The notes under the pieces: generated by a model
Seen by the model: the letters and a program-made list of their open reading frames with translations, nothing else
Told to the model about the DNA's origin: nothing
Database searches by the model: none
Assembly (NCBI GenBank): GCA_944325225.1
Contig: CALUZQ010000004.1
Span: 579-64,578, forward strand
DNA: 64,000 nucleotides
Direction of reading: 5' to 3'
Source of the DNA: an uncultured Elusimicrobiales bacterium
GTDB lineage: Bacteria > Elusimicrobiota > Elusimicrobia > Elusimicrobiales > Elusimicrobiaceae
Shown here: positions 6,460 through 35,320 of the stretch, in pieces
Numbering within the stretch: the first letter of the stretch is position 1
Layout: each line of letters begins with the position of its first letter
Program-made: the position numbers and the translations under genes

Positions 6460-6484
6460 TCTTATAAAATGATAACATAATTCT

Positions 6485-7237: not shown

Positions 7238-7257
7238 TTCGGCGGACGGAGGCAAAC

Positions 7258-8487
7258 ATGGAAAAAGAATTATTTAAAAAAATAGATTCCTATAAGCAAA
7301 CGGTCATTGATTTGCAAACCCATATGATTGGCTGTCCGGCGGTTTCTCCGCACAATGGAGGCGAAGGCGAAAATGCCAAAGCCGCGTATTTGCTGTCTGT
7401 CTTAAAACAGATGAAGTTTGATGAAATTTCTGTCATTAATATCAAAGACGCCAAGGCCAAAGACGGCGTGCGCCCCAATATCGTAGCCAAGTATTACGGG
7501 CAGAATAAAAAGAAAACCCTTTGGGTTATGGCGCATATGGACATCGTGCCGCCCGGGGATTTATCCCTGTGGAAAACCGACCCTTTTAAAGCCGTCGTAA
7601 AAGGCGATAAAATTTATGGCCGCGGCTCCGAAGATAACCAACAGGGGCTGATATCGGGTTTGCTGGCGGTAAAAGCCATGATGGACGGCGGTATCCGGCC
7701 GCCGTGCAATTATGCGCTCCTGCTGAATGCCGATGAAGAAATCGGCAGCACCTACGGTATTGACGCCATTCTTAAAAAACACGCCAAAACTTTTGCCAAA
7801 GACGACGCTTTCCTGGTGCCGGACGGCGGCAACCCCGAAGGTACCATGGTGGAAATTGCCGAGAAAAATATGCTGTGGGTTAAGTTTACCGTTTCCGGCA
7901 AACAGACGCACGCTTCCACTCCCGGCTGTGGGGTAAATGCCCACCGGGCGGCGGCACATTTGGTGGTAAAATTGGGCGAATTGTATAAAAAATTTAATAA
8001 GAAAGATAAACTGTTCGCTCCGGAAAGCGGAAGCACTTTTGAGCCGACCAAACGCGAAGCCAATGTGCCGAATGTAAATACCATTCCAGGAACCGATGTG
8101 TTTTATTTGGATTGCCGCGTCCTGCCTTGTTACAAAAATGCGGCGGTGCTGGCGGAAATTGCCAAAATAGCTAAATCCGTTGAAAAACAGCTGAAAGTAA
8201 AAATTAAAATAGAAGCCGTTATCAATGAAAGCTCTAAACCGACGGATAAAAATGCCGAAGTTGTGAAACTGACTCAAGCTGCGGTCAAAGCCGTTTATAA
8301 AAATACACCCCGTGCGATGGGGGTGGGCGGCGGTACCGTAGGCGCCTACTTGCGTAATGCGGGTTATCCGGCGGTGGTTTATTCCAAATTGGACGAATTG
8401 GCCCACCAGCCCAACGAGTATTCCAGCATCAAAAATACCTTGGGCGATGCCAAAGTGTTTGCGCTGATTTCGCTGAATTTTAAGTAG
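7258..8487 (+). CDS. M20 family metallo-hydrolase (DapE/ArgE-like)
   Basis: MAHMDIVP, GRGSEDN, ADEEIGS, HAS, AHQPNE M20 metal-binding motifs. Confidence 0.88.
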   Translation: MEKELFKKIDSYKQTVIDLQTHMIGCPAVSPHNGGEGENAKAAYLLSVLKQMKFDEISVINIKDAKAKDGVRPNIVAKYYGQNKKKTLWVMAHMDIVPPGDLSLWKTDPFKAVVKGDKIYGRGSEDNQQGLISGLLAVKAMMDGGIRPPCNYALLLNADEEIGSTYGIDAILKKHAKTFAKDDAFLVPDGGNPEGTMVEIAEKNMLWVKFTVSGKQTHASTPGCGVNAHRAAAHLVVKLGELYKKFNKKDKLFAPESGSTFEPTKREANVPNVNTIPGTDVFYLDCRVLPCYKNAAVLAEIAKIAKSVEKQLKVKIKIEAVINESSKPTDKNAEVVKLTQAAVKAVYKNTPRAMGVGGGTVGAYLRNAGYPAVVYSKLDELAHQPNEYSSIKNTLGDAKVFALISLNFK

Positions 8488-17852: not shown

Positions 17853-18926
17853 ATGCGTAAAATCAACATTATGGATTTATTTGCAGGCGTAGGCGGTTTA
17901 AGCTACGGGTTTTCGGTATTAAAGGAGTTTCATATCGTGGCCGCTAACGAGATAGAAAAAGATATCGCGGCGGCGTATTCCTTAAATCACCAATCCGTAA
18001 AAATGATTAACGCCGATATCAAGGATTTGACGCCGAAATCCCTGCAAAAAATAATCGGACATACGCCGATAGATTTTATCGTGGGCGGGCCGCCATGTCA
18101 GTCTTATTCCACCCTGGGAAAGCGAAGATTGGACGACCGGGCGAATCTTTTTATGCAATATAAGCGGGTTTTGTCTTTTATCCAGCCCCGGGGCTTTGTG
18201 TTTGAAAATGTGGTGGGGCTGCTGAGTATGGATAAAGGACGCCTTTTTAAAAGAATCCAAACGGAATTTGCACAATTAGGATATGTCCTTAAATATCAAG
18301 TATTAGATGCGGTGGATTATGGCGTCCCGCAACACCGGGAAAGAGTGTTTTTGGTCGGGTTTAAGGGGGAAAACCTGTTTGAATATCCCCAGCCCACCCA
18401 CGGGCCCGGGCGGTTGCCTTATGTAACGCTGGCTGATGCGCTGGGGGATTTGCCGGTTTTGAAAAGCGGGCAGACCCAGCTTCAGTATGGGGCAAAACCC
18501 AACAATGATTTTTTGCGTTTCGTTCGGAAAAACGATACGACCGTTTTAACGGAACATACCGCTCCCCACAACGGCGCGCATTTAATTAAAATTATGGAAG
18601 CCCTGAAAGACGGCCAAAGCAAAGACGATCTGCCGGACGCCTTGAAACCGAACAGCGGCTACGGCAATACTTACGCCAAATTGTGGTGGCGCAAACCGGC
18701 TACTACCATCACGCGCAATTTTGCGTGTCCGTCTTCTTCCCGGTGCATTCATCCGCGCGATTCCCGGGCGATGTCTATCCGGGAAGGGGCCCGGCTTCAA
18801 AGTTTCCCCGACGATTATCAGTTTTACGGTTCCAATGGTATGAAACGGCTGGAAATCGGCAACGCCGTTCCGCCTCTTTTATCGCTGGCTATTGCCAAAG
18901 AAGTACTCAAAGCCATAAAGCGCTAA
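17853..18926 (+). CDS. DNA (cytosine-5)-methyltransferase of an R-M system
   Basis: Ordered C5-MTase motifs: DLFAGVGG (I), GGPPCQ (IV), ENV (VI), RERV (VIII), RLQSFPD (IX), GNAVPP (X). Confidence 0.96.
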   Translation: MRKINIMDLFAGVGGLSYGFSVLKEFHIVAANEIEKDIAAAYSLNHQSVKMINADIKDLTPKSLQKIIGHTPIDFIVGGPPCQSYSTLGKRRLDDRANLFMQYKRVLSFIQPRGFVFENVVGLLSMDKGRLFKRIQTEFAQLGYVLKYQVLDAVDYGVPQHRERVFLVGFKGENLFEYPQPTHGPGRLPYVTLADALGDLPVLKSGQTQLQYGAKPNNDFLRFVRKNDTTVLTEHTAPHNGAHLIKIMEALKDGQSKDDLPDALKPNSGYGNTYAKLWWRKPATTITRNFACPSSSRCIHPRDSRAMSIREGARLQSFPDDYQFYGSNGMKRLEIGNAVPPLLSLAIAKEVLKAIKR

Positions 18927-18957: not shown

Positions 18958-19722
18958 TTAATAAATAAGATCCTTAAATGCCGGGGGTGTTTGCTGTAAT
19001 TTGTAGCGGAATGCTTCGGGCGGAATGGAAAAAACAATTTGCCCTTCAAAGCGGCTGTTGGCTTTATAATTTAGGTTTCGGTCGTCAATTTCGGAAATGT
19101 CCACCACGGCCGCTTTTCCATTAAATAAATCAAAGTGAATGACATACGACCGGATTCCTTGCCGCTTAAAAACGCGTTTTCCTTCTTCTACTTTATGCTT
19201 TTTGATATCATTCGTTCCGGTGTAGCCGGATTGTACCTCAAATCTTATTTTAGAACTATCGGATAAGGAAACTTCAATGTCGGCCATGGGCGATTGGGAA
19301 AATGTTTCCAGATGGTCCAGATCGTCCATTCCAATTTGATGAATAGCAGATTGCCGGATATTGAGCATAACGGCTATGGCCTTGGTGAAATAAGCGGCGG
19401 CGCAGTAACCGCGCATCCAGTTATAATAGACATTTTCCGGCGTTCGGCCAAAATTGTTTAATCTGGGCAAAAAATCGTTCTTCCTGATTTTCTGGTAAGC
19501 AATGTCTATGGTTTGCAGAAAACTATTAAAATCCTCGGGTTGTATGGAGGGGTGGACGGTGTGGTGAATGCGGGTAAAGAGGTCTTTTAACCGCCGGTTC
19601 AGCATGTTTATTTTTGGCCAGTTGATGGAAACACAATCGGTCGCTTTAAAAAATTCTTTGACATCCGATTGGTTGGTAAATCCCAGCGCTTTACGAAAAT
19701 CTTTTTCATAGGTTTTTGTCAT
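18958..19722 (-). CDS. Putative type II restriction endonuclease (PD-(D/E)xK-like)
   Basis: ADIEV...FEVQSG acidic catalytic pattern; convergent with the MTase; co-oriented with the second nuclease gene (2-nt gap). Confidence 0.6.
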   Translation of the reverse strand: MTKTYEKDFRKALGFTNQSDVKEFFKATDCVSINWPKINMLNRRLKDLFTRIHHTVHPSIQPEDFNSFLQTIDIAYQKIRKNDFLPRLNNFGRTPENVYYNWMRGYCAAAYFTKAIAVMLNIRQSAIHQIGMDDLDHLETFSQSPMADIEVSLSDSSKIRFEVQSGYTGTNDIKKHKVEEGKRVFKRQGIRSYVIHFDLFNGKAAVVDISEIDDRNLNYKANSRFEGQIVFSIPPEAFRYKLQQTPPAFKDLIY

Positions 19723-19724
19723 TT

Positions 19725-20564
19725 TTACCTCAGCAGCTCCAACAGGCGGAAGTAATTGTGATGAAACTGCATGCTGCCGGGAATAATCTTACGGGGGCTG
19801 TGCCATTGAACAAACCCAAAAGGCAGCTGTATGGTGCTGCCGCCGTTCTTGGTGCCGTACTCGGCTGTAGGCGAAATGCGGGCGGACATATCCGGCAAAT
19901 AAATCAGTGTGTCAAAAGCGTTTTCGCCCACCATATTCTTATACCATACCAAGTGGGCCCAGTCTTGGGAATGCAGAGCAAGTCCTTTGGCAAAGCAAAA
20001 ATCAAACAGGTGGGCGATGTGGGTATTAAACCATTGGAGTAATTCGCCGTATAGTTGGGAGTTATATTCTCTTAAGGTATTCCCGACCAGCCGGTGCTTG
20101 CGGAGTTCCAACGCTTTGGTGACGGGATTGCCGAAGCGGTTAATAATTTCCAAAGTATCTTCGGCGGATCCAAAATAAAGGGACAGCGCCCGTTTAACGG
20201 ACGAATCAATGACTTGATGATACTGTGCTTCAAAACCCTGGATAAAACGGTCAATGCCAATAAGAAAAACCTGCCCGCCCGTGTCTTTTTTAATAGAAAC
20301 ATTCAGCCGGGTTCCGTCGGATAATTCCAGCCACATATCCGTCTTGGATTTAGTTTTTCCGCCCAGGACGGAGTCCACATCGGTTTCGCACAGCCCCCCA
20401 TATTCTATGCTTTGAATCGTGCAATGGGGCTTATGGGCGGCTTGAAGCAGCCGCTGTTGGACGGACGGATTTTGCTGGGTCCATTCGGCTAGGAGTGCTT
20501 CGTTGGCGTGGCCGGTTCGTTTGGCGTGCTGCCAACCTTCGGAACGGTTGCGTTGAGTCGGCAT
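19725..20564 (-). CDS. Putative type II restriction endonuclease, MspI/HinP1I-like
   Basis: GHANE, GGKTKSKTD, NVSIKK and terminal MQFH resemble my recollection of MspI/HinP1I motifs (not database-verified). Confidence 0.65.
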   Translation of the reverse strand: MPTQRNRSEGWQHAKRTGHANEALLAEWTQQNPSVQQRLLQAAHKPHCTIQSIEYGGLCETDVDSVLGGKTKSKTDMWLELSDGTRLNVSIKKDTGGQVFLIGIDRFIQGFEAQYHQVIDSSVKRALSLYFGSAEDTLEIINRFGNPVTKALELRKHRLVGNTLREYNSQLYGELLQWFNTHIAHLFDFCFAKGLALHSQDWAHLVWYKNMVGENAFDTLIYLPDMSARISPTAEYGTKNGGSTIQLPFGFVQWHSPRKIIPGSMQFHHNYFRLLELLR

Positions 20565-20751
20565 AAGATGCTCCCTTTCCAAGATGATGTCTGGTTTGAA
20601 AGATATTTTATAACTTTTCTAGAAGAAATGTATGGAACTTTTGGAGAAGGGGAGATAAGGAGAAATATTCCTTAAATTGCTTGTATTGTAAGAAGTTTTT
20701 CCATTCATTTCAGGCGTGTATCCAAGGGTTTCTATCAAATTAGATTGGAGA

Positions 20752-21509
20752 TTAAAGATATAGAATTTTGAATCCAAGCATTAATTCCCAGTCGTAGGAG
20801 TATTTGTTACCTGCTAAACGCCAGCCCCCGCGTACATACATAGAGGAGCCAACATTGACCATGGTTCCTAATTCAAATTCTCCAATCAGCTCGGCTTCTC
20901 CTGGGTTTTTGTAATCCACCGTGTAGCGAGGATCAAATTCAAACCACCAGCCGTCCGGGCCGATGATTCCAAAAATCATACGATAACGGCTTTCATTAAT
21001 ATCTTCCCGGCTGCTGCTTCCCGCAAAGGAAAAAAATATGGCGATATTCTGCCTCTATGAAGAAAGAAGGATGCAGCTTCCAGACGGTAAAAATCTCCGG
21101 TTCGGCAATCCATTTTCCGTCCCCCCAGTTGTTGGCTGGTAGCAGTTGGAGCGGTCAGTTCCATCGCCAGTCCGTACGAGAAAATTTTATTGGGCGTATA
21201 ATCTACATAACTGCTTGACAGCATTATGTCTCCCAGCCCTTTGGCGGAAGAAGTATCATTTCCTATGCGGGAAAGCGGAATTTCAGCACCAAATTTCCAA
21301 TGCCGGTTTAGTTTGAAAGAAGGTTTAATTTCAATGGTGGAAGAAATATCATTCGTGCGGTCATTTTTTGCTTTAAAACGCGGTTTAATTTCCAGCGAAG
21401 TGATATTTTCTGTAGGGAGAATACCCAGCACTTGCAAATTCTCCTGCAGTTGGGCTTGAATTGGCAATGCCCCGAAAAGGATACAAAGAATCAGCGTATA
21501 TTTAAACAT
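20752..21509 (-). pseudogene. Outer-membrane transporter-like beta-barrel gene broken by two +1 homopolymer frameshifts
   Basis: Signal peptide MFKYTLILCILFGALPIQA and GLGDI motif. Removing one base from the G6 tract (21121-21126) and one from the T7 tract (~21030-21036) joins the 206-aa and 75-aa ORFs into one 251-aa frame. Confidence 0.7.
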
Positions 21510-21540
21510 GGGAAAGCGCTCCACTTGAAAAATACCCGTA

Positions 21541-21564
21541 AAAAAGCCCCGGACGGGGGCTTTT
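21541..21564 (-). terminator. Displaced original tRNA-Ser terminator
   Basis: AAAAGCCCC..GGGGCTTTT hairpin immediately downstream (minus strand) of a CTCTCCGCCA tRNA 3'-end copy. Confidence 0.7.
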
Positions 21565-21689
21565 GAAATGGCGGAGAGCTGAATTTCCCTAGCCAAATGC
21601 TCTTTTAGTTGTTACTCTTTCTCCCTGCATAACAGGGAGAAACAGGGAATAAGGATATCGTATTTTCTCTAATTTTGTATATTATAAAT

Positions 21690-22238
21690 ATGAGATTAAA
21701 TAGAAATAACATTTTTTGCGGGTCTTCTTTTTCTCCAAGGACAAATTTACCACAAAAGTTCCAACAGACAAATCGAGAAGAAATTTTTGTTAATTCTTTT
21801 CTAAAAGCATATATTAAAACTATTCGTTCTTCTTCTATATTTATAAAAGAAACAGCAATACCTGGTCTAGGTATTGCTGATGTACTACACTGTGCGGGTG
21901 TAGAAAAGAACAAAAGAGTTATTACACGTATTCGTGGAATTATCGCTTTCGAGATGAAAATAGGAAAATGGAAACAGGCTCTTACACAATCTCATAAATA
22001 TTCTTATTTTGCAGATAAAGTAGTCGTGGTCCTTCCTGCTAACAAAACCCATGCAGCCTTACAGAATATACAATGGTTTAAAGATCTAAAAATATCTCTA
22101 TGGAGTTTTGATTCTAGTACTTCAAAGATAACTAAGATTTTTGATCTAAGAAGAAACACTGCATCCTCTATTAGGGAACGCAAACGAGTTGTTGAAAAAA
22201 TAAAACAAATTACAACTCCACCAACTCCTTCAAATTAA
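21690..22238 (+). CDS. PD-(D/E)xK nuclease-like protein
   Basis: E..IPGLGIADV...IAFEMKIGKWKQALTQ..KY..FAD catalytic pattern; start uncertain. Confidence 0.65.
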   Translation: MRLNRNNIFCGSSFSPRTNLPQKFQQTNREEIFVNSFLKAYIKTIRSSSIFIKETAIPGLGIADVLHCAGVEKNKRVITRIRGIIAFEMKIGKWKQALTQSHKYSYFADKVVVVLPANKTHAALQNIQWFKDLKISLWSFDSSTSKITKIFDLRRNTASSIRERKRVVEKIKQITTPPTPSN

Positions 22239-23409
22239 TAATTGCTTGTTTCATATTTTCCAATATAGAAAAATTTAAAGGGTCTTCTAATCGTTGGTTA
22301 TATTTTTTAATTAAAGCAATAGAGTTATCCAATCTAGCACTCATATTTGATATATTAGAGGAAATGTCGTTTGTTAAAAATTGGTTAGATAAATACTGTA
22401 ATGTTTCCCATGTTTGTAAAGATTCGTTGGCAGGATCTTCTAGTTCTGGAGATCCTTTACGATACAAAATATCTGTTTGGGAAAATCCATTCATAACTTC
22501 AATATCAGAAAAAAAACTTCTTAAAATATTCAGATCAGTAATTTTCAGTCTTAATTGAAGTTTAGAACTTAAATATCGGTGCACCCTCTTTCCCCCACCT
22601 TTTCGTACTGTTGGTTGGAATGTGCTTAAAGAAAAACGTTTTTGACTTGAAAATAAACCGGTCGCCCCGCCATATGCCCCTACCATAGCAAATAATGGAA
22701 TATAAATATCTGCGTAGCCAATAATCACATTAAATTCTGCATTTTGGAGCACATATATTAGATACAGCAAATTGGTAAGTTGCTTGGCAGAAAAAAATAC
22801 ATCTTCTCCGGTCTTACAATTAAAATTAACAACAATATAGATTCCATTAACCTTGGGTTCTTGATTTAAAATCTCAGAAATGAATTTTTTTATTTCTGGT
22901 AAAGAATCAAGCGCTTCTATAGAAACTGCCAGGGTCGCAAATAACTGTTGGTTTTCATATCTTTTCTGCTGCCAGATTTCCCCAGATATGGCTATAAAGT
23001 TTGCTGCCTTTCCAGCTGAGGTAGAATCAAAACTAGATTTTACAAAAATATTAGGAGCCAGCAGCGTAGTAAATCCTTTATCCAGTTCATAATCAATAAC
23101 TTCATTAATGCAAGCTTCAATATTTCGTTCTCGAGAGAATTCTTTTTCATCGTGCTTGCAAAAATAAGGATAATTTATCAGGTTTTTAAGTCTCCAATCT
23201 GGCTCAATGGGACACGTACTAACATAAACTTGTGGATCAAATAAAAAAATCTTATTAGTAGATAAAAAATGTCCTTTAACTTCATCCAGTACTTCATCTT
23301 TGATATCTCGGGGACTAAAAATAACTCCATCAATAAAATTCTTTTGCATAGCGGTAAGCGTCTTCTTTGCCGTAGCATCCCCATATCCATGTTGAGCAAA
23401 TATTTTCAT
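22210..23409 (-). CDS. Uncharacterised 399-aa protein (possible TIM-barrel fold)
   Basis: Start reassigned to ATG overlapping the kinase stop (ATGA); motifs FAQHGYG, GVIFSPRD, FDPQVY; no recognised family. Confidence 0.7.
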   Translation of the reverse strand: MKIFAQHGYGDATAKKTLTAMQKNFIDGVIFSPRDIKDEVLDEVKGHFLSTNKIFLFDPQVYVSTCPIEPDWRLKNLINYPYFCKHDEKEFSRERNIEACINEVIDYELDKGFTTLLAPNIFVKSSFDSTSAGKAANFIAISGEIWQQKRYENQQLFATLAVSIEALDSLPEIKKFISEILNQEPKVNGIYIVVNFNCKTGEDVFFSAKQLTNLLYLIYVLQNAEFNVIIGYADIYIPLFAMVGAYGGATGLFSSQKRFSLSTFQPTVRKGGGKRVHRYLSSKLQLRLKITDLNILRSFFSDIEVMNGFSQTDILYRKGSPELEDPANESLQTWETLQYLSNQFLTNDISSNISNMSARLDNSIALIKKYNQRLEDPLNFSILENMKQAIINLKELVEL

Positions 23410-24281
23410 AAGGATTTTAGCTCCTCTTTCAATTTTGTTATATTCCCTGAACGTAAATTTGAATCTTTTTTCAACAATCGAGCAAGAAAACAAGAAAACT
23501 TTTCGCTAATATCAGTTCTTAATGTACATAATAGCGGACATCTGTTAGGTCCCAGCAGTTCATTAATATTTTTAAAATAAGGCTCGCCAAGAGCATATGA
23601 GAAAACAGTATATGCAGCGCAGTATAAATCAGTTCGATAAGTAACAATTTGATGGTAATCAACTGCAAATAATTCTGGAGCAGCATAGGCATTAGTTCTT
23701 GGAGACATCATCCCTGTTGCAGTCAAAGAAGAAAGATTGGGATCTGTTGTTAATGCAATACTAAAATCGATTAACACAAAAGTTCGTGGTGAAATGTTTT
23801 TTATAACATTTCCAGGTTTAATATCACGATGTACCAAGTGAGACAATGAGGTTTCTTCAATTGCATTTAGCAAACAATTTAAAAGATTTTTTAATTCTTC
23901 TTCTGAAGGGACATAGCGTTCTTGCATTAAATCCTGTAAAGATTTTCCTGGCAGATACTCCTCTGAATAAATCAAAAATTCTACATCATTAATTTTTTTG
24001 ACATGAGGCTCTATTTGTCCTAACTTAACAATATAGGGAGAAGTCAGCTTAGTGAGAGAATCTATTTCTCTAAAAGCTCGCAATCTAATAGAATCGTCCT
24101 GTTGTAATAAGTTTAAGTGGCATACTTTTATTGCTTCCCAACGTCCATTCACTAGGGCCTTATACACAAATTTAGATCCGCCCCAAGAAATTTTCGACAG
24201 ATTACTAATAACGGGGAGAAGATTTGGTAATTGAGAAAATACAGTCTCAAACCACATATTTAAAAAATTACTATTTACCAT
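23406..24281 (-). CDS. Stand-alone Hanks-type Ser/Thr protein kinase
   Basis: WGGSKFVY Gly loop, EAIK, alphaC Glu (FREI), HRDIKPGN, DFS, YAAPE, TDLY; no TM or sensor domain. Confidence 0.92.
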   Translation of the reverse strand: MVNSNFLNMWFETVFSQLPNLLPVISNLSKISWGGSKFVYKALVNGRWEAIKVCHLNLLQQDDSIRLRAFREIDSLTKLTSPYIVKLGQIEPHVKKINDVEFLIYSEEYLPGKSLQDLMQERYVPSEEELKNLLNCLLNAIEETSLSHLVHRDIKPGNVIKNISPRTFVLIDFSIALTTDPNLSSLTATGMMSPRTNAYAAPELFAVDYHQIVTYRTDLYCAAYTVFSYALGEPYFKNINELLGPNRCPLLCTLRTDISEKFSCFLARLLKKDSNLRSGNITKLKEELKSL

Positions 24282-24355: not shown

Positions 24356-25111
24356 ATGCAAATTAAATTCCTATTGAAGCGTTTGCGGGGAGTAAATATT
24401 CATACCCATCCGCCATATAAAGTGGTCACCAGCGGGCGGACATTGGAAAATTATCCTGCTGGATACAGAAAAGTATCGTCGGAATTAATCTTTTTGGCCC
24501 GGGCAATTGTTCTTAACCAAGATTTTGTCCAATTTGTAAGAAACTTCCGTCAAAAACATGGCTTACCACCTGAAGGATTTGAAGCAGGCCCCTGTCATTT
24601 CATACTTAGAGATAAAAAACACAAAAAACTCGCTAAATTAGCCCAACAAGTACAATGGGATTTAATTGCCAGTAAAGTACATGGAGATTATTCTGTCCAT
24701 CCGCTTCTAAAACCCCATTTTTTCTCTATTGTATGGTGTAATACCATTGAACACCATATAGAACCGATTTCTATCTACTACGCCACGTCTGAGGACCCTC
24801 AGCTAGAAATCCACATTACCCACGATGTCAAATTTTCAGAACTAATTGGATTTCTCCGCGCCAAGAAAGCAAATATTGAAGACAATTTAAAAGAATTATC
24901 CTCAAAATATTTCACAAGAACCAACCTGGAAAATATTCGTTTACTTAGTTTACAAACTAAACGGATGACAGAAACAGATTTATTTGAAAGAGCTCAAAAA
25001 GACAAAGTATTAAGGAAATTAATCCCAAATTTAACCACTGATGCCTTCCACAAAAGATGTGGCCGGGCTAGAAAACTCGTTAAAAATCTCTTCATAACCA
25101 AAAGGACATAG
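24356..25111 (+). CDS. Hypothetical island protein (possible C-terminal DNA-binding helix)
   Basis: 251-aa ORF divergent from the kinase; basic helical C-terminus. Confidence 0.55.
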   Translation: MQIKFLLKRLRGVNIHTHPPYKVVTSGRTLENYPAGYRKVSSELIFLARAIVLNQDFVQFVRNFRQKHGLPPEGFEAGPCHFILRDKKHKKLAKLAQQVQWDLIASKVHGDYSVHPLLKPHFFSIVWCNTIEHHIEPISIYYATSEDPQLEIHITHDVKFSELIGFLRAKKANIEDNLKELSSKYFTRTNLENIRLLSLQTKRMTETDLFERAQKDKVLRKLIPNLTTDAFHKRCGRARKLVKNLFITKRT

Positions 25112-25187: not shown

Positions 25188-26438
25188 ATGAAAATTGAAA
25201 ATATCCCTGTCGAAAGACTTAAAGCTTATTCTCGCAACACACGCATACATTCGCCCAAACAAATAGAACTATTAGCACGAAGTATTAAAGTCTTTGGGTT
25301 CAACAATCCCGTATTAATTGATAAAAACAATGTTATTTTGGCAGGACATGGCCGCGTCCTAGCAGCCCGGAAATTAAACTTAAAATCAGTTCCCACGGTA
25401 AAAATTGAACATCTCACCCCGCTTGAACTAAAAGCGTTTCGGATAGCGGACAACCGAATTGCCGAGCAAAGCAGCTGGGATAAGGCCTCCCTAAAACTGG
25501 AATTTCAAGAGTTAGCCTCATGCCAGGATGAAATGGATATCAATTTAACGGGTTTTTCCACCCCGGATATTGATTTGCTTTTCCTGTCCGAAATAAATAC
25601 TTCAAAAGAAGAAACTTTGGACATTCCCCTTGATATCCCAAAGCGCGTCAAACCGGGCGATTTATGGAGTTTAGGCAGGCACCGCCTTTTTTGCGGCAAT
25701 GCGCTGGAATCCAGTAGTTACCGAGAGCTCTTGGGCAATCAAAAGGCCGATATGGTATTTACTGATGCCCCCTTTAATGTAAAAACAGACGGACATATCT
25801 GCGGAAACGGAAAATATAAGCATAAAGACTTTGCCATGGCTCATGGAGAGATGACTCCGCAAGAATTTACCAATTTTCTCTCGCAAACATTCAAAAACTT
25901 GATTCAATTTTCAAAAGACGGATCGCTCCATTTTGTATGCATGGATTGGCGGCATATTTCCGAAATATCCACAGCAGGCAAGGCCTATACTGCTCTTAAA
26001 AACATCTGCGTATGGGATAAACAATGCGGCGGAATGGGCTCTCTGTATCGCTCCCAACATGAATTTTTCTTCCTGTTCAAAAATGGTAACGCCACCCACA
26101 TTAATCATATCGATTTGGGGAAATATGGACGGAACAGAACAAATGTATGGAGTTATCCCGGCGTGAGGGTTTCCAATCCCGTAAACCGAAACGACTTAAA
26201 ATTCCATCCAACCGTTAAACCCGTAGGAATGATCGCCGATGCCATTTTGGACGTTAGTAACATTGGAGACATCGTTCTTGATTGCTTTGCAGGGAGCGGA
26301 TCCACATTGCTCGCCTGTGAAAAGACGAATCGCAAGGGCTATATGATGGAAATCGAGCCGCACTACTGCGACGTTATTCTATATCGCTTTGAACAATTAA
26401 CAGGCCTAAAAGCCAAATTTGAGGAGGTACTCGCATGA
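25188..26438 (+). CDS. ParB N-terminal domain + beta-class N4/N6 DNA methyltransferase
   Basis: ParB motif FGFNNPVLID...AGHGR; FTDAPFNV (motif IV), HPTVKP, DCFAGSGST (motif I); RBS GGAGG. Confidence 0.9.
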   Translation: MKIENIPVERLKAYSRNTRIHSPKQIELLARSIKVFGFNNPVLIDKNNVILAGHGRVLAARKLNLKSVPTVKIEHLTPLELKAFRIADNRIAEQSSWDKASLKLEFQELASCQDEMDINLTGFSTPDIDLLFLSEINTSKEETLDIPLDIPKRVKPGDLWSLGRHRLFCGNALESSSYRELLGNQKADMVFTDAPFNVKTDGHICGNGKYKHKDFAMAHGEMTPQEFTNFLSQTFKNLIQFSKDGSLHFVCMDWRHISEISTAGKAYTALKNICVWDKQCGGMGSLYRSQHEFFFLFKNGNATHINHIDLGKYGRNRTNVWSYPGVRVSNPVNRNDLKFHPTVKPVGMIADAILDVSNIGDIVLDCFAGSGSTLLACEKTNRKGYMMEIEPHYCDVILYRFEQLTGLKAKFEEVLA

Positions 26439-26755
26439 CATTACGTATCAAATATAGACCTTATAAAGTGGGACCAGGACATCCGCCAAAAGAATTTCAG
26501 TTCAAACCCGGACAATCGGGTAATCCCAAGGGGCGGCCAGCAAACAGCCGAACGATGTATTCTCTTATGAAAGAAGAGTTCGGACGTATGGTAACAGTAA
26601 GCGACGGAAAACAAAAAAGCGAAATTGCAGCCAAACAAGCCCTGGCTCGTAAATGGCTGCATGACGCTTTGCGAGGCGACATCAAAGCTTCAGAAATCGT
26701 ACTGAAATTTTTAACACGGGAAATGGACTCAGATCACACCTCCTTGCCAATTTAA
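26435..26755 (+). CDS. DUF5681-type protein
   Basis: YKVGPGHPP...QFKPGQSGNPKGRP signature; ATGA overlap with the MTase. Confidence 0.8.
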   Translation: MTLRIKYRPYKVGPGHPPKEFQFKPGQSGNPKGRPANSRTMYSLMKEEFGRMVTVSDGKQKSEIAAKQALARKWLHDALRGDIKASEIVLKFLTREMDSDHTSLPI

Positions 26756-27088: not shown

Positions 27089-28288
27089 ATGATTACAAAA
27101 GCGAAGTTAGACAATCTGGAACAAGATTCAAAATTTCAAAAACTGCATACTATTCAGAATCGCTTCAATATCTTCTCTACCTTAAACATTGAACATTTTG
27201 AAATCCGCCACTCAAACGTATTGGCCTGGCTGTTAAATCCAACAGAAACACATCAACTTCAAAATCAACCTTTATGCCTGTTTTTAGATATTCTGAGGGA
27301 AATGCATATTGATGTCGCTCCGACTTGCTCTGCTCTTGTAAAACGGGAAAAGAAGCTTTCCAAGACCAATCAAATTGACTTATTACTGTACCTAGACAGC
27401 GGGGAAATTATCGCTATTGAAAATAAAGTAAAGTCCGGAGAGGGACATAATCAGCTCAAACGATACAGAGAATCTCTGGAGAAACTATATCCTCATACAA
27501 AAATACATTATTTGTTTTTGACCCCGGCCGGAGACTCCCCCAAAACAGATGACGAAGATAAGTGGAAGTTTGGAAGTTATGATATTGTCACTAAAATGTT
27601 AACCAGTTTACTAGAGAAACAAGACTTATCGGTGGACAGCAGAGTATTTTTAGAACATTACTTAGAAACAGTTAAAAGAGAGGTCCTTATGGATAGAAAA
27701 GAAACAGAAGAATTATGCACGCAATTATACGCAAAATATCCAGAAGTATTTGATGCTGTTATGGAATATAAGCAAGACATTCAAACTCAAATTAAGTGTT
27801 TTTTAGAAACTGCTCTAAAAAATACTTGGAATCAAGAGTTTATATTAGACCGAGCATTCAAGAACAGTATCACATTCTATATTCGAGATTTTGAAAATTT
27901 TGCGTGCTTACAAATTGATGAAAATGTAGATTATGGGGGTTGGAAACAACCCAAAAACGCGCTTACTTTTGAGTTTAAAGTCCAAAATGGAAATTTAATA
28001 CTAAAATTAATGATTTTGGCCTCTAAAAAAATTGGATTTAAAGAATTCTTATTAACAAAAATTCAAAAGAATCCTCTATTTGAAAAAGGTAAACAAGGAA
28101 ATAAATGGGAACGCCTCGTAGAAAAAACTGTTTTGGAAAAAGAAAAATATGATAATGTGGTAAATATCCAGTATTTAACAGATTGTATTGAAAAATTTAT
28201 GGAAAACTTTCTCCAAGGTGCATATATACAAATAAAGGAAGATTTGTTACAAATCTGCCAAGACTATGAAAGAGAAAACGCTCAATAA
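27089..28288 (+). CDS. PD-(D/E)xK nuclease family protein (PDDEXK_4-like)
   Basis: EIRHSNVLAWLLNP, IDLL...IAIENKV...QLKRY, LFLTP. Confidence 0.85.
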   Translation: MITKAKLDNLEQDSKFQKLHTIQNRFNIFSTLNIEHFEIRHSNVLAWLLNPTETHQLQNQPLCLFLDILREMHIDVAPTCSALVKREKKLSKTNQIDLLLYLDSGEIIAIENKVKSGEGHNQLKRYRESLEKLYPHTKIHYLFLTPAGDSPKTDDEDKWKFGSYDIVTKMLTSLLEKQDLSVDSRVFLEHYLETVKREVLMDRKETEELCTQLYAKYPEVFDAVMEYKQDIQTQIKCFLETALKNTWNQEFILDRAFKNSITFYIRDFENFACLQIDENVDYGGWKQPKNALTFEFKVQNGNLILKLMILASKKIGFKEFLLTKIQKNPLFEKGKQGNKWERLVEKTVLEKEKYDNVVNIQYLTDCIEKFMENFLQGAYIQIKEDLLQICQDYERENAQ

Positions 28289-29186
28289 ATTAACCCGTAC
28301 CATTTACCTGCTTAACGTATTGGACAGCGGGAATATTGATATTCCCCGCGAAGCGGAAGAACTCGGCGTAACGGTGCGGACGATTCAACGGGATATTCTT
28401 AATTTGGAAGCGGCCGGAATCCCGCTCTATAAAGTTAAACCGGGAACTTATAGTTTTACGGAAGGCTTTTCCCTAAAAAAATTACAATTATCCAAGGAAG
28501 AACTTTCCGCGCTCGTGTTACTTTTAGAATTGGCCAGGCCGTTTGGCTCTAAATTTGAAAATTTAATCTCTAATTTAAACCAACGGCTTATATGTCCTCT
28601 AGAGGAATCCCCGTATTATTTCCAAATCGCCTCTTCGGCTTATGAGAAATCCGCCGTCACGCAGGCGCTGGAACAAGCAATCCATACCCATACGGCAGTA
28701 TATTTAACATTTGCGGCGGATCCCACTAAAAAATTAAATTATTATCTGCAGCCGCTCAAATTACTGCATTCTGGCGGATTTTGGTATGTGTTCGGTTTAA
28801 ACGACCGGAAACAAATTAAAACTTTGCGTTTGGACCGTATTTTGGAGATAAAAAACACGCAAGATGCTTTTACCCCCTCCAAAACAGCCTTAGACGCCTT
28901 AAAAGCAAGTACCAGCGTATTCTTTAACGAACGAGTAAAAAACCGCGTAATTTTGAAAATTGAGACAAATATTGCCTCTTATTTTGAAAAACGGAACTAT
29001 TTTCCAAGACAAAAAATCGTAACCAAACATTCGGACGGAAGCCTAACGCTTGAAACAACCATATCCCAAGACGAAGAAGTCTTGCTGCCCCTAATGCCTT
29101 GGTTGCCGCATATCCATATTGTAGAACCCATCTCTTTAAAGCATACACTGCACAACACGCTAAAGAAATATCTTCAGCAAGATTAG
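28266..29186 (+). CDS. HTH-WYL-WCX transcriptional regulator
   Basis: N-terminal wHTH ELGVTVRTIQRDI; WYL domain P..L....GFWY...R..RLDRI; C-terminal WCX-like region. Confidence 0.92.
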   Translation: MKEKTLNKLTRTIYLLNVLDSGNIDIPREAEELGVTVRTIQRDILNLEAAGIPLYKVKPGTYSFTEGFSLKKLQLSKEELSALVLLLELARPFGSKFENLISNLNQRLICPLEESPYYFQIASSAYEKSAVTQALEQAIHTHTAVYLTFAADPTKKLNYYLQPLKLLHSGGFWYVFGLNDRKQIKTLRLDRILEIKNTQDAFTPSKTALDALKASTSVFFNERVKNRVILKIETNIASYFEKRNYFPRQKIVTKHSDGSLTLETTISQDEEVLLPLMPWLPHIHIVEPISLKHTLHNTLKKYLQQD

Positions 29187-29233
29187 CTTGACTATCCCTC
29201 CCTACGTAAGCGGTAATATACGTGGGAGGGAAT

Positions 29234-29638
29234 ATGAAAACACCCCATACGCTGACAAATAAACAATTATGCAAAGCTTGGGCTATGTACGTCAAAAAAC
29301 CAATGCCCAAGCTGCGCAGATCTTTGCTGGTTAGATATATTGCCTGGTATAAACAAGCGTACGAAGACAAAATCAATATTAAACACTTCTTCCGGCAACT
29401 CACTCAAACACAAGAAAATATAAATCAATACAAACAAAAACAACCAAAGGAAAAGACTTTTTCCGAGGGAACCTGTTTCATACGCTCTTATAATGGAAGC
29501 CAATACAAAGTGGAAGTCATTCCAAACGGGTATTTGTATAGCGGACAAACCTACAAGAGCTTATCCGCCGTCGCACGCAAAATAACAGGCAAGCAATGGA
29601 ATGGAAAAGTCTTTTTCGGGGTAAAAAATGCAAGATAA
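29234..29638 (+). CDS. DUF2924 domain protein
   Basis: GT.FIRSYNG...V.V...GY.YSGQTYKSLSAVARKITGKQWNGKVFFG; overlaps recombinase start. Confidence 0.85.
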   Translation: MKTPHTLTNKQLCKAWAMYVKKPMPKLRRSLLVRYIAWYKQAYEDKINIKHFFRQLTQTQENINQYKQKQPKEKTFSEGTCFIRSYNGSQYKVEVIPNGYLYSGQTYKSLSAVARKITGKQWNGKVFFGVKNAR

Positions 29639-31259
29639 ACCTATTCGCTGCGCCATTTATACGCGGAAATCCTCAGAGGAGGGGCTGGAACAAGATTTTA
29701 ACAGCCTTCAAGCCCAGCGAGAAGCTTGTGAAGCTTATATTAAAAGCCAAAAATCAGAGCATTGGGTCCTGATTTCCACGCCCTACGATGATGGCGGATA
29801 TTCCGGAGGGACGCTGGAACGCCCCGCTCTTCAAAAACTCCTACAAGATGTCCGGTTGGGACAAGTTGATATTATCGTTGTCTATAAAATTGACCGATTG
29901 ACACGCAGTTTAATGGATTTCAGTAAAATCATAGAGGTATTAGACGCCAGCCAAGCATCTTTCGTATCCATTACCCAACACTTCAATACCACGACCAGTA
30001 TGGGCCGATTGACGCTTAATATGCTTCTGTCTTTTGCGCAATTTGAACGGGAAGTAACTGCCGAACGGATCCGGGATAAATACGCCGCCAGTAAAAAGAA
30101 AGGTATGTGGATGGGCGGTTATCCACCTTTTGGATATGAACGCAAAGATAAAAAGCTCTTTCCTCATCCGCAGCAGGCCGCCGTATTAATCTCGTTGTTC
30201 AAACAATACTATGCGTTAAAAAGCGTCGGAAAACTGTTAGATTGGGTACGCGCTAACAACATCCAAACCTCTTTAGGGAAACCCTTTACCAAAATTAATT
30301 TGCATCGTATTTTATCCAATCGGGTCTATATCGGAGAAGTGGGCCATAAAGGAATATGGTACCCGGGATTACATCAGGCATTAGTGGATAGGGAGTTATT
30401 TAACTCTGTTCAAGACATTATTACGGAACACCAAGTCAAACGCACCTATCACGACACCCACCCCAGTTTTTTAGCCGGAAAACTGTTTGATGATAAAGGT
30501 AATCGGATGAGCCCCAAAGCAAGCGGTTCCGGCAACAAGAAACGGCGATATTACACGAGCCAAGCTATGATTAAGCAAGAAAGGGAAAAACTGGGCGCTA
30601 TTACGCAAGTTCCGGCAGGAGAACTGGAAAATTTTGTTACCCAGCGCTTAAAAGAAATCTTAAATGCTCCCTCATTTTTAACCCCGCTTCTCTCGGATTA
30701 CCATATATCCCTACAACAAGATGTAATAGCAAAAATTCCTCAGCTTTCCATATCCACAGAAATAAGAAAATTACTTCTGGTAAGAGTTGATTTGACCCCT
30801 AATACGTTAAAACTGACCATATCCCCAGCCCAACTAAAAGAATTTTTGCTTTCTATGGCAGAAAATAGACCTTGCAAAACGCTTACATATGACAAAAATA
30901 CCCTGCAAACCTTTGAATACCCTTTCCAAATTAGAAGGGCCTGCAAAGGAAAAAAGATTATTTTAGGAACTGAAAATCCTATCCCTAATTATCCCAAAGA
31001 ACCATTAGTTAGAATTATTTGTCAAAGTTATACTTTGCGGGAAAAACTCTTCTCCGGCAGGGCTTCCTCTATTTTAGAGTTGGCAAAACAAGAGGGTTGC
31101 ACAGACAGTTATATGTCCCGGCTTTTAGAAATATCCTTCTTACCCGCTAAAACCATTTTGGATATCCTATCCGGTACTTCAAAAGAGGTTTTAAGCGTTA
31201 AAGATTTACTTAAGTTAAAAAACGACCGAAGGCTGTCGCAACGCTTATCTAAACTATAG
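29628..31259 (+). CDS. Large serine recombinase (integrase)
   Basis: CAIYTRKS (catalytic Ser), DDGGYSGG...RPAL, VYKIDRLTRS, FAQFERE, recombinase domain YIGEV. Confidence 0.93.
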   Translation: MQDKPIRCAIYTRKSSEEGLEQDFNSLQAQREACEAYIKSQKSEHWVLISTPYDDGGYSGGTLERPALQKLLQDVRLGQVDIIVVYKIDRLTRSLMDFSKIIEVLDASQASFVSITQHFNTTTSMGRLTLNMLLSFAQFEREVTAERIRDKYAASKKKGMWMGGYPPFGYERKDKKLFPHPQQAAVLISLFKQYYALKSVGKLLDWVRANNIQTSLGKPFTKINLHRILSNRVYIGEVGHKGIWYPGLHQALVDRELFNSVQDIITEHQVKRTYHDTHPSFLAGKLFDDKGNRMSPKASGSGNKKRRYYTSQAMIKQEREKLGAITQVPAGELENFVTQRLKEILNAPSFLTPLLSDYHISLQQDVIAKIPQLSISTEIRKLLLVRVDLTPNTLKLTISPAQLKEFLLSMAENRPCKTLTYDKNTLQTFEYPFQIRRACKGKKIILGTENPIPNYPKEPLVRIICQSYTLREKLFSGRASSILELAKQEGCTDSYMSRLLEISFLPAKTILDILSGTSKEVLSVKDLLKLKNDRRLSQRLSKL

Positions 31260-31272
31260 AAAAGGAGAAAAT

Positions 31273-32028
31273 ATGACTATATACAACCATTTTGTCCCCA
31301 CAGGGATTAAATCATTAGATGCTGAAATCGGCGGTTTAGAAATAGGAAAACTCACTTTCGTAACCGCCACACCACGCCAAGGGAAAACGGCCTTTATCGC
31401 AAATGTAATAGCAAATACGGCAGTTTCCCAACACATTCCAACAGCGTTTTTCTCCATAGAAATAGGGAAAAACAGTTTATTTGAACGACTAGCAGAAAAA
31501 TTCTGCAATATTAAAATTGCACAGTTAAAAGAGGGATATTTCTCCAAGGAACAATACCAGAAGATCATTCAACCAACATTAGAGAAATTACAAAAATCCG
31601 CCTTGTATATTGATGATACTCCTGCCATTGACATAGAAGAAATTTGCCGAAAAACCCGCCGGCTGCATAAAGAATTGACTCAAACAGATATAAATCTTAA
31701 ATTACTAGCCATAGATTATTTTCAGTTAATTAAAGGGGCCCAAAAAGACACAAATCATATATTGGGCAAATTGCGCGAACTGGCCCAAGAATTACAAATT
31801 GCCGTATTAATATCGGTACAATGCAAACAACAATTTACAGGGAGTCCCTCTAATTTATTAGATTTACTTCCTGCTTCAATGCAAATATTTTCTAATGAGT
31901 TATTGATCTTTATCCAGAAAACTCAACGAGAAAACGAATTACATATCGTGTTCCATAGTAAATGTTCTATACGCACACAACTAAATGTACACTTCAACCA
32001 AGAATGCGGAATAATTACCGACAAATAG
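31273..32028 (+). CDS. Truncated DnaB-like helicase C-terminal (RecA-fold) domain
   Basis: TGIKSLD..IGGL, Walker A ATPRQGKT, FFSIE, LYIDDTP, IDYFQLI; lacks DnaB N-terminal domain. Confidence 0.8.
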   Translation: MTIYNHFVPTGIKSLDAEIGGLEIGKLTFVTATPRQGKTAFIANVIANTAVSQHIPTAFFSIEIGKNSLFERLAEKFCNIKIAQLKEGYFSKEQYQKIIQPTLEKLQKSALYIDDTPAIDIEEICRKTRRLHKELTQTDINLKLLAIDYFQLIKGAQKDTNHILGKLRELAQELQIAVLISVQCKQQFTGSPSNLLDLLPASMQIFSNELLIFIQKTQRENELHIVFHSKCSIRTQLNVHFNQECGIITDK

Positions 32029-32870: not shown

Positions 32871-33325
32871 TATGGTTCTGACGGCCTAACAGATTATGTA
32901 CTCACAAATAATATCGCCCAAATATCAGACGATACCCAAAAGACTTTATTTACCGCAGATGCGATTACCTGCGCTAAAAACAAATTTCTCCAACAATGGC
33001 TAAATGGCTGATGCTGATTGCGCAAGCGCAAACACTTGCACATCTACCCCCCACTGATAAGGCATTTAAATTGTTGGGACAAGGTTGGGTGGCGGAGGAA
33101 ACGCTGGCAATCGCCGTTTATTGCGCTCTCAAATACAGCAACGATTTTGAAAAAGGCGTTTTAACCGCCGTTAATCACTCCGGCGACAGCGATTCTACCG
33201 GCAGCGTAACCGGACAAATTCTGGGAGCGTATTTGGGTTTTGAAGCAATTCCTCAAAAATATATTGAACCACTGGAGTTAAAAGAAATAATTTTAAAAAC
33301 GACTGATAATCTAACAAGAAAGTAA
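32871..33325 (+). pseudogene. ADP-ribosylglycohydrolase remnant
   Basis: Startless fragment QISDDTQKTLFTADAI, then in another frame [11 protein letters not shown]...[21 protein letters not shown]; the middle of the gene is missing. Confidence 0.8.
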
Positions 33326-33951: not shown

Positions 33952-34935
33952 TTAGCAATAGTCATCTATTCCATCAGATCCTTGCCAGACTAAGCCTCTA
34001 TCAAGAGTCACTGTTTTTTCAGCTCCATTTCTTTCAAAAAAAGAACCTAATGATATATGAACAAACCCCTTATCAAATATAATTTTTGATGCTGACCACG
34101 GTTTCATATTTGTCTCATTGAAACAAATAATCCAAATAGTATTATTATCCTTTGATATAATAAAATCTTCTAAAATAGACTCATAATGTTTATTTTTACA
34201 GAAAACCTTACCCTTTTGGAGATTTTGAGCATAACCTAATAATGGATTCTCCCTTTCCACATTCATAGGACAAAGAGGAAATTCCGAAGGGATGTGCCAA
34301 TCCTTTTGAAAAGCTCCTGGCGTTAAAGAAACTATTCGAGAGTCTATTACTTGAGGTTGTTGCTCCTTTAGGTCTTTAAAAATCCAATCCCCCATAGTTC
34401 CTTTTGGAGTAGTATGTTCTTTAACTCGCCAACGTTCCATATTGTGCAAGCAATTAGCGGCCTCTTCCCTCGTTACTGTTCGCATCCAATTGAAATTAGA
34501 GTCTTCTTTACTTAGAGGCAATAACTTTGGATTTTCTAAAAACGCCTCTATGCTACCACAAAGATATTCTATTTTTTTACATGTATAAGGATTTTTAAGT
34601 ACATTTTCCAACCGGCTCAACCATCGAAGGTTCTCGGGGCGATTATTGCGCCGATTTGTATCTATATGATCAACTACATCTTCCTTATTGCGAGGAACTC
34701 CATGAAAGGCAGTAGCAACAATTCTGTGAACTCGAACAGAAACTATTTCCATATAACCTGTTAAGGCATTTGGCCTTCCAAAAGTCCATTGATTATCTAG
34801 AGGGCGCACACGTTTTCCTGGTCGGGCATGACGCATTACAGCGCCATTATCCCGCACCGAATAATGCTCGCCTTCATATATACATTCTGCTTCTTCACAA
34901 AAATCATCTACACTTACGCGGCTCATAATGCTCAT
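33952..34935 (-). CDS. HNH endonuclease with uncharacterised C-terminal domain
   Basis: VHRIVATAF...VVDHIDTNRRNNRPENLRW HNH signature. Confidence 0.85.
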   Translation of the reverse strand: MSIMSRVSVDDFCEEAECIYEGEHYSVRDNGAVMRHARPGKRVRPLDNQWTFGRPNALTGYMEIVSVRVHRIVATAFHGVPRNKEDVVDHIDTNRRNNRPENLRWLSRLENVLKNPYTCKKIEYLCGSIEAFLENPKLLPLSKEDSNFNWMRTVTREEAANCLHNMERWRVKEHTTPKGTMGDWIFKDLKEQQPQVIDSRIVSLTPGAFQKDWHIPSEFPLCPMNVERENPLLGYAQNLQKGKVFCKNKHYESILEDFIISKDNNTIWIICFNETNMKPWSASKIIFDKGFVHISLGSFFERNGAEKTVTLDRGLVWQGSDGIDDYC

Positions 34936-35104: not shown

Positions 35105-35126
35105 TCTAAAGGTTATAAAAAAGATA

Positions 35127-35213
35127 CGGAGAGGGAGAGATTCGAACTCTCGATACGGTTTCCCGTATGCAGTCTTTCCAGGACTGTGCCTTAAACCGCT
35201 CGGCCACCTCTCC
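35127..35213 (-). tRNA. tRNA-Ser (GGA)
   Basis: GGAGAGG/CCTCTCC acceptor stem, CAGTC-CTGGAAA-GACTG anticodon arm, long variable arm, GTTCGAATC; no encoded CCA. Confidence 0.96.
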
Positions 35214-35320
35214 AAAAGGTTGTGCGGACTAAGTACCTATTTATTATAGCAAATTAATTTTTAGCTTGTATATTTTCCGACGATAAAATAAAAACGCTCC
35301 GGAGCGGAGCGTTTTTATTT

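Follow-up and report, generated by a model that had tools for sequence, protein, structure and literature searches.

A conserved cassette of a Hanks-type kinase, an orphan TIM-barrel protein and a small PD-(D/E)xK protein, a candidate defence system in an uncultured Elusimicrobiales bacterium

The window analysed here is a stretch of 64,000 nucleotides (nt) from an uncultured Elusimicrobiales bacterium (GenBank assembly GCA_944325225.1, contig CALUZQ010000004.1, positions 579 to 64,578 of the forward strand). Between its positions 21690 and 24281 it carries three tightly packed genes, which encode a Hanks-type Ser/Thr kinase, a protein of an unclassified family predicted to fold into a triosephosphate isomerase (TIM) barrel, and a small RecB-like PD-(D/E)xK protein predicted to be a nuclease. 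We found this triad to be a real unit and not a chance neighbourhood: of 63 non-redundant loci besides that of the window, 57 have the three genes intact and next to each other, and the loci come from over 12 bacterial phyla and from a plasmid of a haloarchaeon. The three genes form one self-contained, horizontally mobile cassette that most likely acts against phages or other mobile elements. More specifically, there is a reasonable chance, somewhat better than even in our judgement, that they make up a defence cassette in which a nuclease effector is controlled by the kinase/barrel pair. The role in defence, the direction in which signals pass, the substrate of the nuclease and any antisense control are inferred from the data presented below.

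A three-gene unit kept together across phyla

In the window, the kinase gene (23406-24281, minus strand) encodes 291 amino acids (aa) without a sensor domain. It is followed on the same strand by the TIM-barrel gene (22210-23409, 399 aa), whose ATG at 23409 forms an ATGA stop/start overlap with the kinase gene at 23406-23409 that can be read directly (…CTT ATG AAA ATA…). The nuclease gene (21690-22238, plus strand, 182 aa) is convergent to the other two, and its 3' end overlaps that of the TIM-barrel gene by 29 nt (22210-22238). The open reading frame (ORF) of the nuclease is open from 21675; its start was set at the ATG at 21690 because the resulting 182 aa are the length of a 93%-identical homologue (P0101). 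The 399-aa gene is 100% identical to a contig of an uncultured Elusimicrobiales metagenome-assembled genome (MAG; L006). A preliminary description of this DNA, made from the sequence without database searches, had given the same layout with both overlaps and had proposed a three-part anti-phage unit controlled by phosphorylation; the layout was borne out by the ORFs and by direct reading of the sequence.

Other loci were fetched via the barrel protein. In the first round, 53 of 58 loci had the kinase immediately upstream and the nuclease convergent and overlapping, and the gene-neighbourhood check on the final 63 loci, in which barrel homologues occurred with kinase and nuclease in the 57 mentioned above, agreed with the proposed three-part unit. 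The hosts include Elusimicrobia, Ignavibacteria, Verrucomicrobia, Planctomycetes, Desulfobacterota, Nitrospirota, Acidobacteria, Cloacimonetes, Lentisphaerae, Bacteroidota, Bacillota and others, as well as archaea. At nearly all loci the end of the kinase ORF and the start of the barrel gene are a few bases apart at most, generally in a 4-nt overlap. The convergent 3' overlap between the barrel and nuclease genes was present in 61 of 62 loci and measured 4-86 nt, with a median of 23 nt. The most distant relatives (L065 and L066, approximately 25% identity) keep the triad, and the same arrangement was found in a nuclease clade that carries a winged helix (L063 and L064). Cultured carriers include Bacillus mycoides SIN2.2, with plasmid NZ_CP128131.1 (L067, 4494-7182; genes QRE63_RS29155-29165), and the haloarchaeon Natribaculum breve, with plasmid CP095393.1 (L068, 3411-6182). 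On these two plasmids the genes follow the order winged-helix nuclease, kinase, barrel and are co-directional and overlapping; this co-directional order, again with a winged-helix nuclease, was also seen on a B. bombysepticus plasmid (L069, 3470-6185), where the barrel gene is split in two. Since the linkage is kept through this rearrangement of gene order, it provides strong evidence for a shared function.

The three proteins are also inherited together. Pairwise-identity matrices of 51 loci were correlated for barrel and kinase (r = 0.93), kinase and nuclease (r = 0.87) and barrel and nuclease (r = 0.83), all with Mantel p ≤ 0.001. The distribution across phyla is patchy, and the proteins diverge in step and are not exchanged separately. 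The six loci that are not intact (L046, L047, L055, L056, L057 and L069) give the impression of decay or of incomplete sets: in L046 and L047, both copies in one Verrucomicrobiae MAG, barrel and nuclease stand without the kinase, L055 from Acanthopleuribacter pedis has kinase and barrel without the nuclease, and L056 and L057 are fragments. At L047, an ORF at 6440-7762 that resembles a replication initiator, as judged by sequence only, stands upstream in place of the kinase.

Predicted folds and conserved residues of the three proteins

The window kinase matched Pfam Pkinase with an E-value of 4.2e-23 and 82.5 bits (gathering cut-off 31.7) over profile positions 5-253 of 263. Across 51 aligned cassette kinases, K52, E72, HRDIKPxN (HRDIKPGN in the window copy), D172 and APE are kept. 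By its Pfam match and its catalytic residues the protein thus classes as a stand-alone Hanks-type kinase, in line with the sensor-less kinase of the preliminary description. The motifs HRDIKPGN, DFS and APE, which that description had called intact, are all present, but the second of them (D172-F-S174, 23764-23772) deviates from the D[L/F]G found in all 50 other aligned cassette kinases. This DFS might reflect natural variation, a change that inactivates the kinase, or a mistake in the assembly. The best PADLOC matches of the window kinase were the PD-T4-6 kinase profiles (8.7e-27, 92.5 bits), a score typical of the shared kinase domain; weaker PADLOC matches were to the Mad6 and MkoA kinases, and the NCBIfam models MAD6 and PglW were matched far below their cut-offs (70 versus 460 and 29 versus 990, respectively).

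The 399-aa protein had been left without a named family, and our searches of Pfam, PADLOC, NCBIfam and PHROGs gave no match to it either. When 54 members of its family were searched against Pfam at E ≤ 1, and the family profile against PDB sequences, only coiled-coil noise in a C-terminal helical bundle was returned. The family consists of single-domain proteins of approximately 390-405 aa that every source labels as hypothetical. A word-indexed search yielded 100 homologues, and an HMMER scan of the 1.84 billion representatives of a metagenome library clustered at 50% identity yielded 1412 clusters at E ≤ 1e-3, with 403 at E ≤ 1e-30. AlphaFold2, given a 54-sequence alignment, modelled the protein with a predicted local distance difference test (pLDDT) score of 92.5 and a predicted template modelling (pTM) score of 0.93. 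The model comprises a (beta/alpha)8 TIM barrel at approximately residues 1-300 and the helical bundle at approximately 320-399.

In the PDB, the first Foldseek match of this model was a tRNA-guanine transglycosylase (TGT; 3unt, E 3.7e-6, TMq 0.47). Dehydroquinase, pyruvate kinase and sugar-phosphate epimerase barrels followed within one to two orders of magnitude, and the TGT-like Cap10 of the cyclic-oligonucleotide-based anti-phage signalling system (CBASS; 9ntn_A) stood at rank 27, with TM-scores of 0.41-0.47 for TGT and Cap10. Judged by the model, TGT is therefore the best fold match, though only marginally ahead of generic TIM barrels. A search of the viral fold library BFVD again gave generic barrels, and viral TGT/DpdA-like proteins were among the matches. 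Conserved residues of the family are Q6-H7-G8, G28/S32-P-R-D35, D58-P-Q-x-Y62, P119-N120, G189/Y191, G231/D234 and T250-G251-W252, and they map to the C-terminal ends of the strands, with all eight strand ends carrying some. The active or ligand site of TIM barrels usually lies directly after the strands, on the C-terminal face, and the glycines conserved in this family after strands 7 and 8 would be at the position that serves for phosphate binding in many of them. The conserved pocket of the model is enzyme-like in appearance. No cysteine occurs in invariant or ≥90% conserved columns of the barrel alignments A1 and A2, nor is there an invariant Cys/His cluster, which indicates that the family has no zinc site of the TGT type. 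The preliminary description had suggested a TIM barrel resembling TGT or the 'beta-protein': the barrel fold was recovered and TGT came first among the matches, but membership of either family by sequence was rejected, as neither the Pfam searches with 54 members nor the PDB profile search matched them. An origin of the barrel and nuclease from phage genes likewise found no support: the BFVD matches were generic barrels, no homologue was found in phage GenBank entries and no PHROG matched, and a single IMG/VR contig was the only viral record.

In the small protein, G61, D64, E88, K90, W94, Q100 and Y104 are invariant among 45 homologues and correspond to the GhAD, ExK and QxxxY motifs of RecB-type PD-(D/E)xK nucleases. 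The AlphaFold2 model (pLDDT 85.5) has an alpha-beta-beta-beta-alpha-beta core with a disordered N-terminal tail of 15-20 residues, and the motifs fall on strands 61-69 and 83-89 and on helix 94-106. The top Foldseek matches in the PDB were all of PD-(D/E)xK type (AF2093, XisH, YaeQ, SfsA, Cas4 and Can2), with a best E-value of approximately 2e-3 and TMq of 0.45-0.48. The protein profile gave no match to PDB sequences, and the Pfam search matched only a winged helix that is inserted in some members. By its motifs the protein may be classed as a RecB-like PD-(D/E)xK nuclease of predicted activity; the earlier reading of it as a restriction-like nuclease is supported by the invariant motifs and by a matching fold with weak statistics. 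The motifs that had been listed for the barrel (FAQHGYG, GVIFSPRD and FDPQVY) and for the nuclease (IAD, FEMK and WKQALTQ) are all in the translations. In a sister clade of 230-290 aa, a winged helix resembling those of MarR and ArsR forms an insertion between the strands that carry GIAD and ExK, which would point to DNA as the target of the nuclease; some sources annotate these proteins as transcription regulators.

That annotation bears on a different division of labour. The kinase itself might be the effector, as proposed for Stk2 and PD-T4-6, phosphorylating many host or phage proteins and thereby aborting infection, with the barrel as its sensor or inhibitor and the PD-(D/E)xK/winged-helix protein mainly as a DNA sensor or as a transcription regulator of the cassette. 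The best scores of the window kinase against the PD-T4-6 models, the translational coupling of kinase and barrel, the many small-protein members with a winged helix and a regulator annotation, and A. pedis, which keeps kinase and barrel without the nuclease, would all fit. However, the D, ExK and QxxxY residues are invariant in the 45 homologues, the winged-helix members included, which argues for catalysis and not for binding alone, and pairs of barrel and nuclease persist without a kinase. We regard a kinase effector as unlikely.

Genomic company and proposed role

The genes that flank the cassette differ and are unrelated between sites, as expected of a mobile cassette. Among 141 flanking genes scanned, other than those of restriction-modification (R-M) systems, no Pfam family occurred more than twice, and no fourth conserved gene was found. 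A Fic/DOC-domain gene comes right after the nuclease gene in L026 (9889-10260), L029 (6934-7785), L038 (5920-6617) and L040 (2947-3705), three of these loci being within type I R-M operons. The gene may represent an independent module embedded there, or may now and then act as a fourth partner.

The setting that stands out most clearly is the type I R-M operon. At eight loci (L023, L025, L026, L027, L029, L030, L039 and L043) the triad is nested in the order hsdM-hsdS-triad-hsdR, and at several of these the start of the kinase gene is only a few bases away from the stop of hsdS. L038 has the upstream half, hsdM-hsdS, and its contig ends before hsdR; in L048 the triad is placed between hsdM and hsdS. 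With these two, the nesting amounts to ten loci and recurs in several phyla; the flanks of the window triad contain no hsd genes. Type III mod/res genes adjoin the triad in L002, L051 and L064, GmrSD and a methylase are the neighbours in L065, and a Bil system in L002. Other nearest neighbours were BrxL, PglZ, PD-Lambda-1, IetA, PsyrA, PDC-S02, PDC-S15, a type I restriction endonuclease and a type IIG R-M enzyme. By raw count, the triad is embedded in or borders on an R-M operon or a type IV restriction gene at no fewer than 14 loci. This company agrees with the anti-phage reading of the preliminary description.

An integrase or recombinase adjoins the triad in L001, L066 and L067, and these, together with the plasmid locations and several chromosomal sites without defence neighbours, would also suit a non-immune role, in which the cassette either serves mobile elements for addiction or maintenance, or serves DNA repair or regulation and is merely carried along by islands and plasmids. 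We consider such a role very unlikely, given the recurrent nesting between hsdS and hsdR in several phyla, the adjoining bacteriophage exclusion (BREX), Bil, GmrSD and other systems, and the patchy spread across phyla with three proteins diverging in step. Moreover, addiction and defence roles are compatible with each other.

A further alternative is that the cassette works like an R-M system, in which a TGT-like barrel, perhaps with the kinase as its ATP-using partner, marks host DNA and the PD-(D/E)xK protein cuts DNA without the mark. Its attraction lies in the barrel, with TGT as the best solved-structure match, Cap10 and viral TGT/DpdA-like proteins among the other matches, and conserved residues on all eight strand ends in the fashion of an enzyme. 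The conserved convergent overlap would mirror the layout of many R-M gene pairs, the winged helix of the sister clade suggests sequence-directed DNA binding by the nuclease, and loss of the nuclease alone is tolerated (L055). Yet none of the 54 barrel members matched a Pfam TGT family, the invariant Cys/His cluster for a TGT zinc site is missing, and the TM-score is only 0.47, with E-values near those of unrelated barrels. The flanking genes scanned included no conserved 7-deazaguanine synthesis genes, Hanks kinases are known as protein kinases, and the cassette often lies within an R-M operon that is already complete, which fits an accessory layer more readily than another R-M system. Taken together, a marking-and-cutting cassette seems improbable to us.

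We therefore return to the reading of a nuclease effector under the control of the kinase/barrel pair. Kinase and barrel would be made together from one transcript and probably work as a pair, whose task would be to detect infection or else to catalyse a reaction in the conserved pocket on the C-terminal face of the barrel. The small RecB-type PD-(D/E)xK protein would be the DNA-directed effector and would be expressed from its own convergent promoter. Infection would turn on the kinase/barrel pair, and phosphorylation of the nuclease, the barrel or other targets would then license DNA cleavage, so that the invader or the infected cell is stopped; phosphorylation would in this way gate the nuclease. 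Any particular order of these events is far less probable than the reading as a whole.

The convergent arrangement might add a further layer of control. An intrinsic-terminator-like hairpin lies past the nuclease gene on the minus strand (21540-21568; GCCCC/GGGGC stem with a U-run; -17.2 kcal/mol, z = -2.8), and a second, weaker terminator-like hairpin on the same strand lies within the nuclease gene (21853-21879) and is built from codons of the conserved PGLGIAD motif. The former is a possible end of kinase/barrel read-through transcripts. With either hairpin as terminator, the kinase/barrel transcript would end antisense to the nuclease mRNA. The conserved overlap and the minus-strand hairpin beyond the nuclease gene suggest that this transcript may extend across the nuclease gene in antisense and lower the expression of the nuclease, and the overlap of the nuclease mRNA with the 3' end of the partner transcript could hold the nuclease at a low level in uninfected cells.

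Several observations weigh against this scheme. The Gly-to-Ser change in the DFG motif means that the window copy of the kinase may be impaired. The fold match of the modelled nuclease is weak, as its best E-value shows. Several loci are flanked by housekeeping genes, with no recognisable defence neighbour. Partial sets (L046, L047 and L055) are tolerated, which fits loss of function and is silent on who controls whom. As far as computation goes, the interpretation given in the preliminary description is nevertheless supported. A bolder version of it, to which we give little credence, takes the barrel as a new class of enzyme that acts on a phosphorylated ligand from its partner kinase, or that performs a base exchange or conjugation on DNA or protein as TGT and Cap10 do. 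In either case, a new immunity chemistry would switch on the nuclease, and the R-M-nested cassettes might in addition be guards that fire when restriction is inhibited.

In the window, the triad is part of a low-GC block (GC fraction 0.32-0.35, compared with 0.45-0.55 in the left flank and past the tRNA), as its earlier characterisation as AT-rich implied. The low-GC stretch extends to a tRNA-Ser gene (35126-35214) and contains a DUF2924 gene and a large serine recombinase gene (29222-31259). The same pair directly adjoins the triad in L001 (9718-11714, 58% identical), a hint that this recombinase moves the cassette. No direct repeat of the tRNA-Ser 3' end was found, either by repeat finding or by a 25-mer search with 3 mismatches, and for that reason the left edge of an island is not demonstrated. 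The placement of the triad at the end of a tRNA-integrated island, as first described, thus stands in part: the low GC up to the tRNA and the serine recombinase make such an island plausible, but its left boundary is not established.

The block also holds a PDC-S26 gene, a WYL regulator and methyltransferases. A PDDEXK_4 protein in the region 27089-29186 matched the PADLOC candidate PDC-S26 (7.7e-73), and its gene overlaps that of a WYL/WCX/helix-turn-helix regulator; the two are a second defence-type module in the low-GC block. A fusion of a ParB N-terminal domain with an N6_N4 DNA methyltransferase (region 25188-26755; PADLOC MTase_II, 4.2e-83) is encoded in overlap with a DUF5681 gene, itself a match to the phage family phrog_26239. 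Divergent from the kinase gene, a 251-aa ORF (24356-25111) had no match in Pfam, PADLOC or PHROGs. Beyond the recombinase, the island encodes a DnaB_C/KaiC-like ATPase (31273-32028), then a 271-aa ORF without a match (to 32853). A 109-aa ORF (32996-33325) matched only positions 206-286 of the 287 of an ADP-ribosylglycohydrolase profile and is probably a gene remnant, and a protein with an HNH_3 endonuclease domain (33952-34935, minus strand) adjoins the tRNA-Ser gene.

On the other side of the triad, two minus-strand ORFs in different frames (20976-21596 and 20752-20979) resemble the N-terminal and the C-terminal portion of a single protein that is secreted or located in the outer membrane, and the region 20752-21596 has the appearance of a gene that was frameshifted or broken, at the border of the low-GC block. 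This broken gene separates the triad from a Dcm-type R-M system just outside the low-GC region. There, two ORFs on the minus strand (18958-19722, 254 aa, and 19725-20582, 285 aa) come after, and are convergent to, a C-5 cytosine DNA methyltransferase gene (17853-18926, plus strand; Pfam DNA_methylase, 8e-71). Neither ORF had a Pfam or PHROG match; one or both are probably the restriction partners of a type II R-M system with the C-5 methyltransferase.

Novelty and comparison with known systems

Neither the barrel nor the nuclease has a model in Pfam (2025), NCBIfam (June 2026), PADLOC 2.0 or PHROGs, and full-text searches of the literature found no description of the triad, consistent with the earlier statement that the system was not recognised as a named one. 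The CapK/CapS kinase-repressor pair was considered and rejected, as CapK is a kinase of the anti-sigma-factor type and not a Hanks kinase according to the available portion of PMC13373217. The triad was also not among the systems in the accessible portions of the DefensePredictor paper (PMC13092281) and of a modularity-network preprint. We regard the cassette as a robust, widespread and so far unnamed candidate defence system that combines known kinds of parts, a kinase and a PD-(D/E)xK nuclease, with an orphan TIM-barrel family. It has been missed so far because hardly any model organism carries it and because its specific parts have no database model.

If confirmed, the cassette would add a widespread defence system in bacteria and archaea, with 1412 clusters for the barrel family alone, and would give a function to a large orphan family of TIM barrels. 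It would also provide a second, multi-component setting for eukaryotic-like kinases in immunity. With its recurrent placement between hsdS and hsdR, layered 'guard' defence could be tested directly beyond the case of PrrC.

Among known systems, PD-T4-6 of E. coli and the staphylococcal Stk2 share with the window kinase a stand-alone Hanks-type architecture without a sensor domain in a defence context. Both are described as single-gene systems. The cassette kinase is instead coupled to a TIM barrel of approximately 400 aa and a PD-(D/E)xK nuclease, for neither of which PADLOC has a model, and the single-gene description of PD-T4-6 does not apply to a kinase that accompanies and co-evolves with a barrel and a nuclease in 57 of 63 loci. 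Hanks kinases within multi-gene defence operons are known from BREX type 2 and phage growth limitation (Pgl; PglW), from the methylation-associated defence system (MADS; Mad6) and from TerY-P, but the partners are others and none of the components of these systems matches the barrel or the nuclease.

With PrrC/RloC-type genes, the cassette shares the position between hsdS and hsdR and an apparent co-transcription with hsdMS at 8-10 triad loci. For PrrC, a single ABC-ATPase/anticodon nuclease, this location in a type I R-M operon goes along with a second line of defence that is set off by a block of restriction. The two are unrelated in sequence and in domains, and most copies of the triad, that of the window included, are outside R-M operons. 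DpdA of the Dpd system and Cap10 of type IV CBASS have the TIM-barrel fold in common with the cassette barrel; in contrast to them, the cassette has no sequence-profile match, no zinc-site cysteines and no QueC/QueD/QueE-type partners, and the barrel is paired with a protein kinase rather than with DpdB or a CD-NTase. Small nucleases of the RecB, Cas4 and XisH types share the E...GhAD...ExK...QxxxY motifs and the alpha-beta-beta-beta-alpha-beta core with the cassette nuclease, which differs in having neither a Pfam family match nor Fe-S cysteines; the point at which the winged helix is inserted in the sister clade, between the D and ExK strands, is unique.

By analogy, the cassette would work most like the kinase-containing abortive or multi-gene systems (PD-T4-6, Stk2, Pgl/BREX type 2 and MADS), and its R-M-nested form would resemble second-line defences of the PrrC type, but it is a member of none of them.

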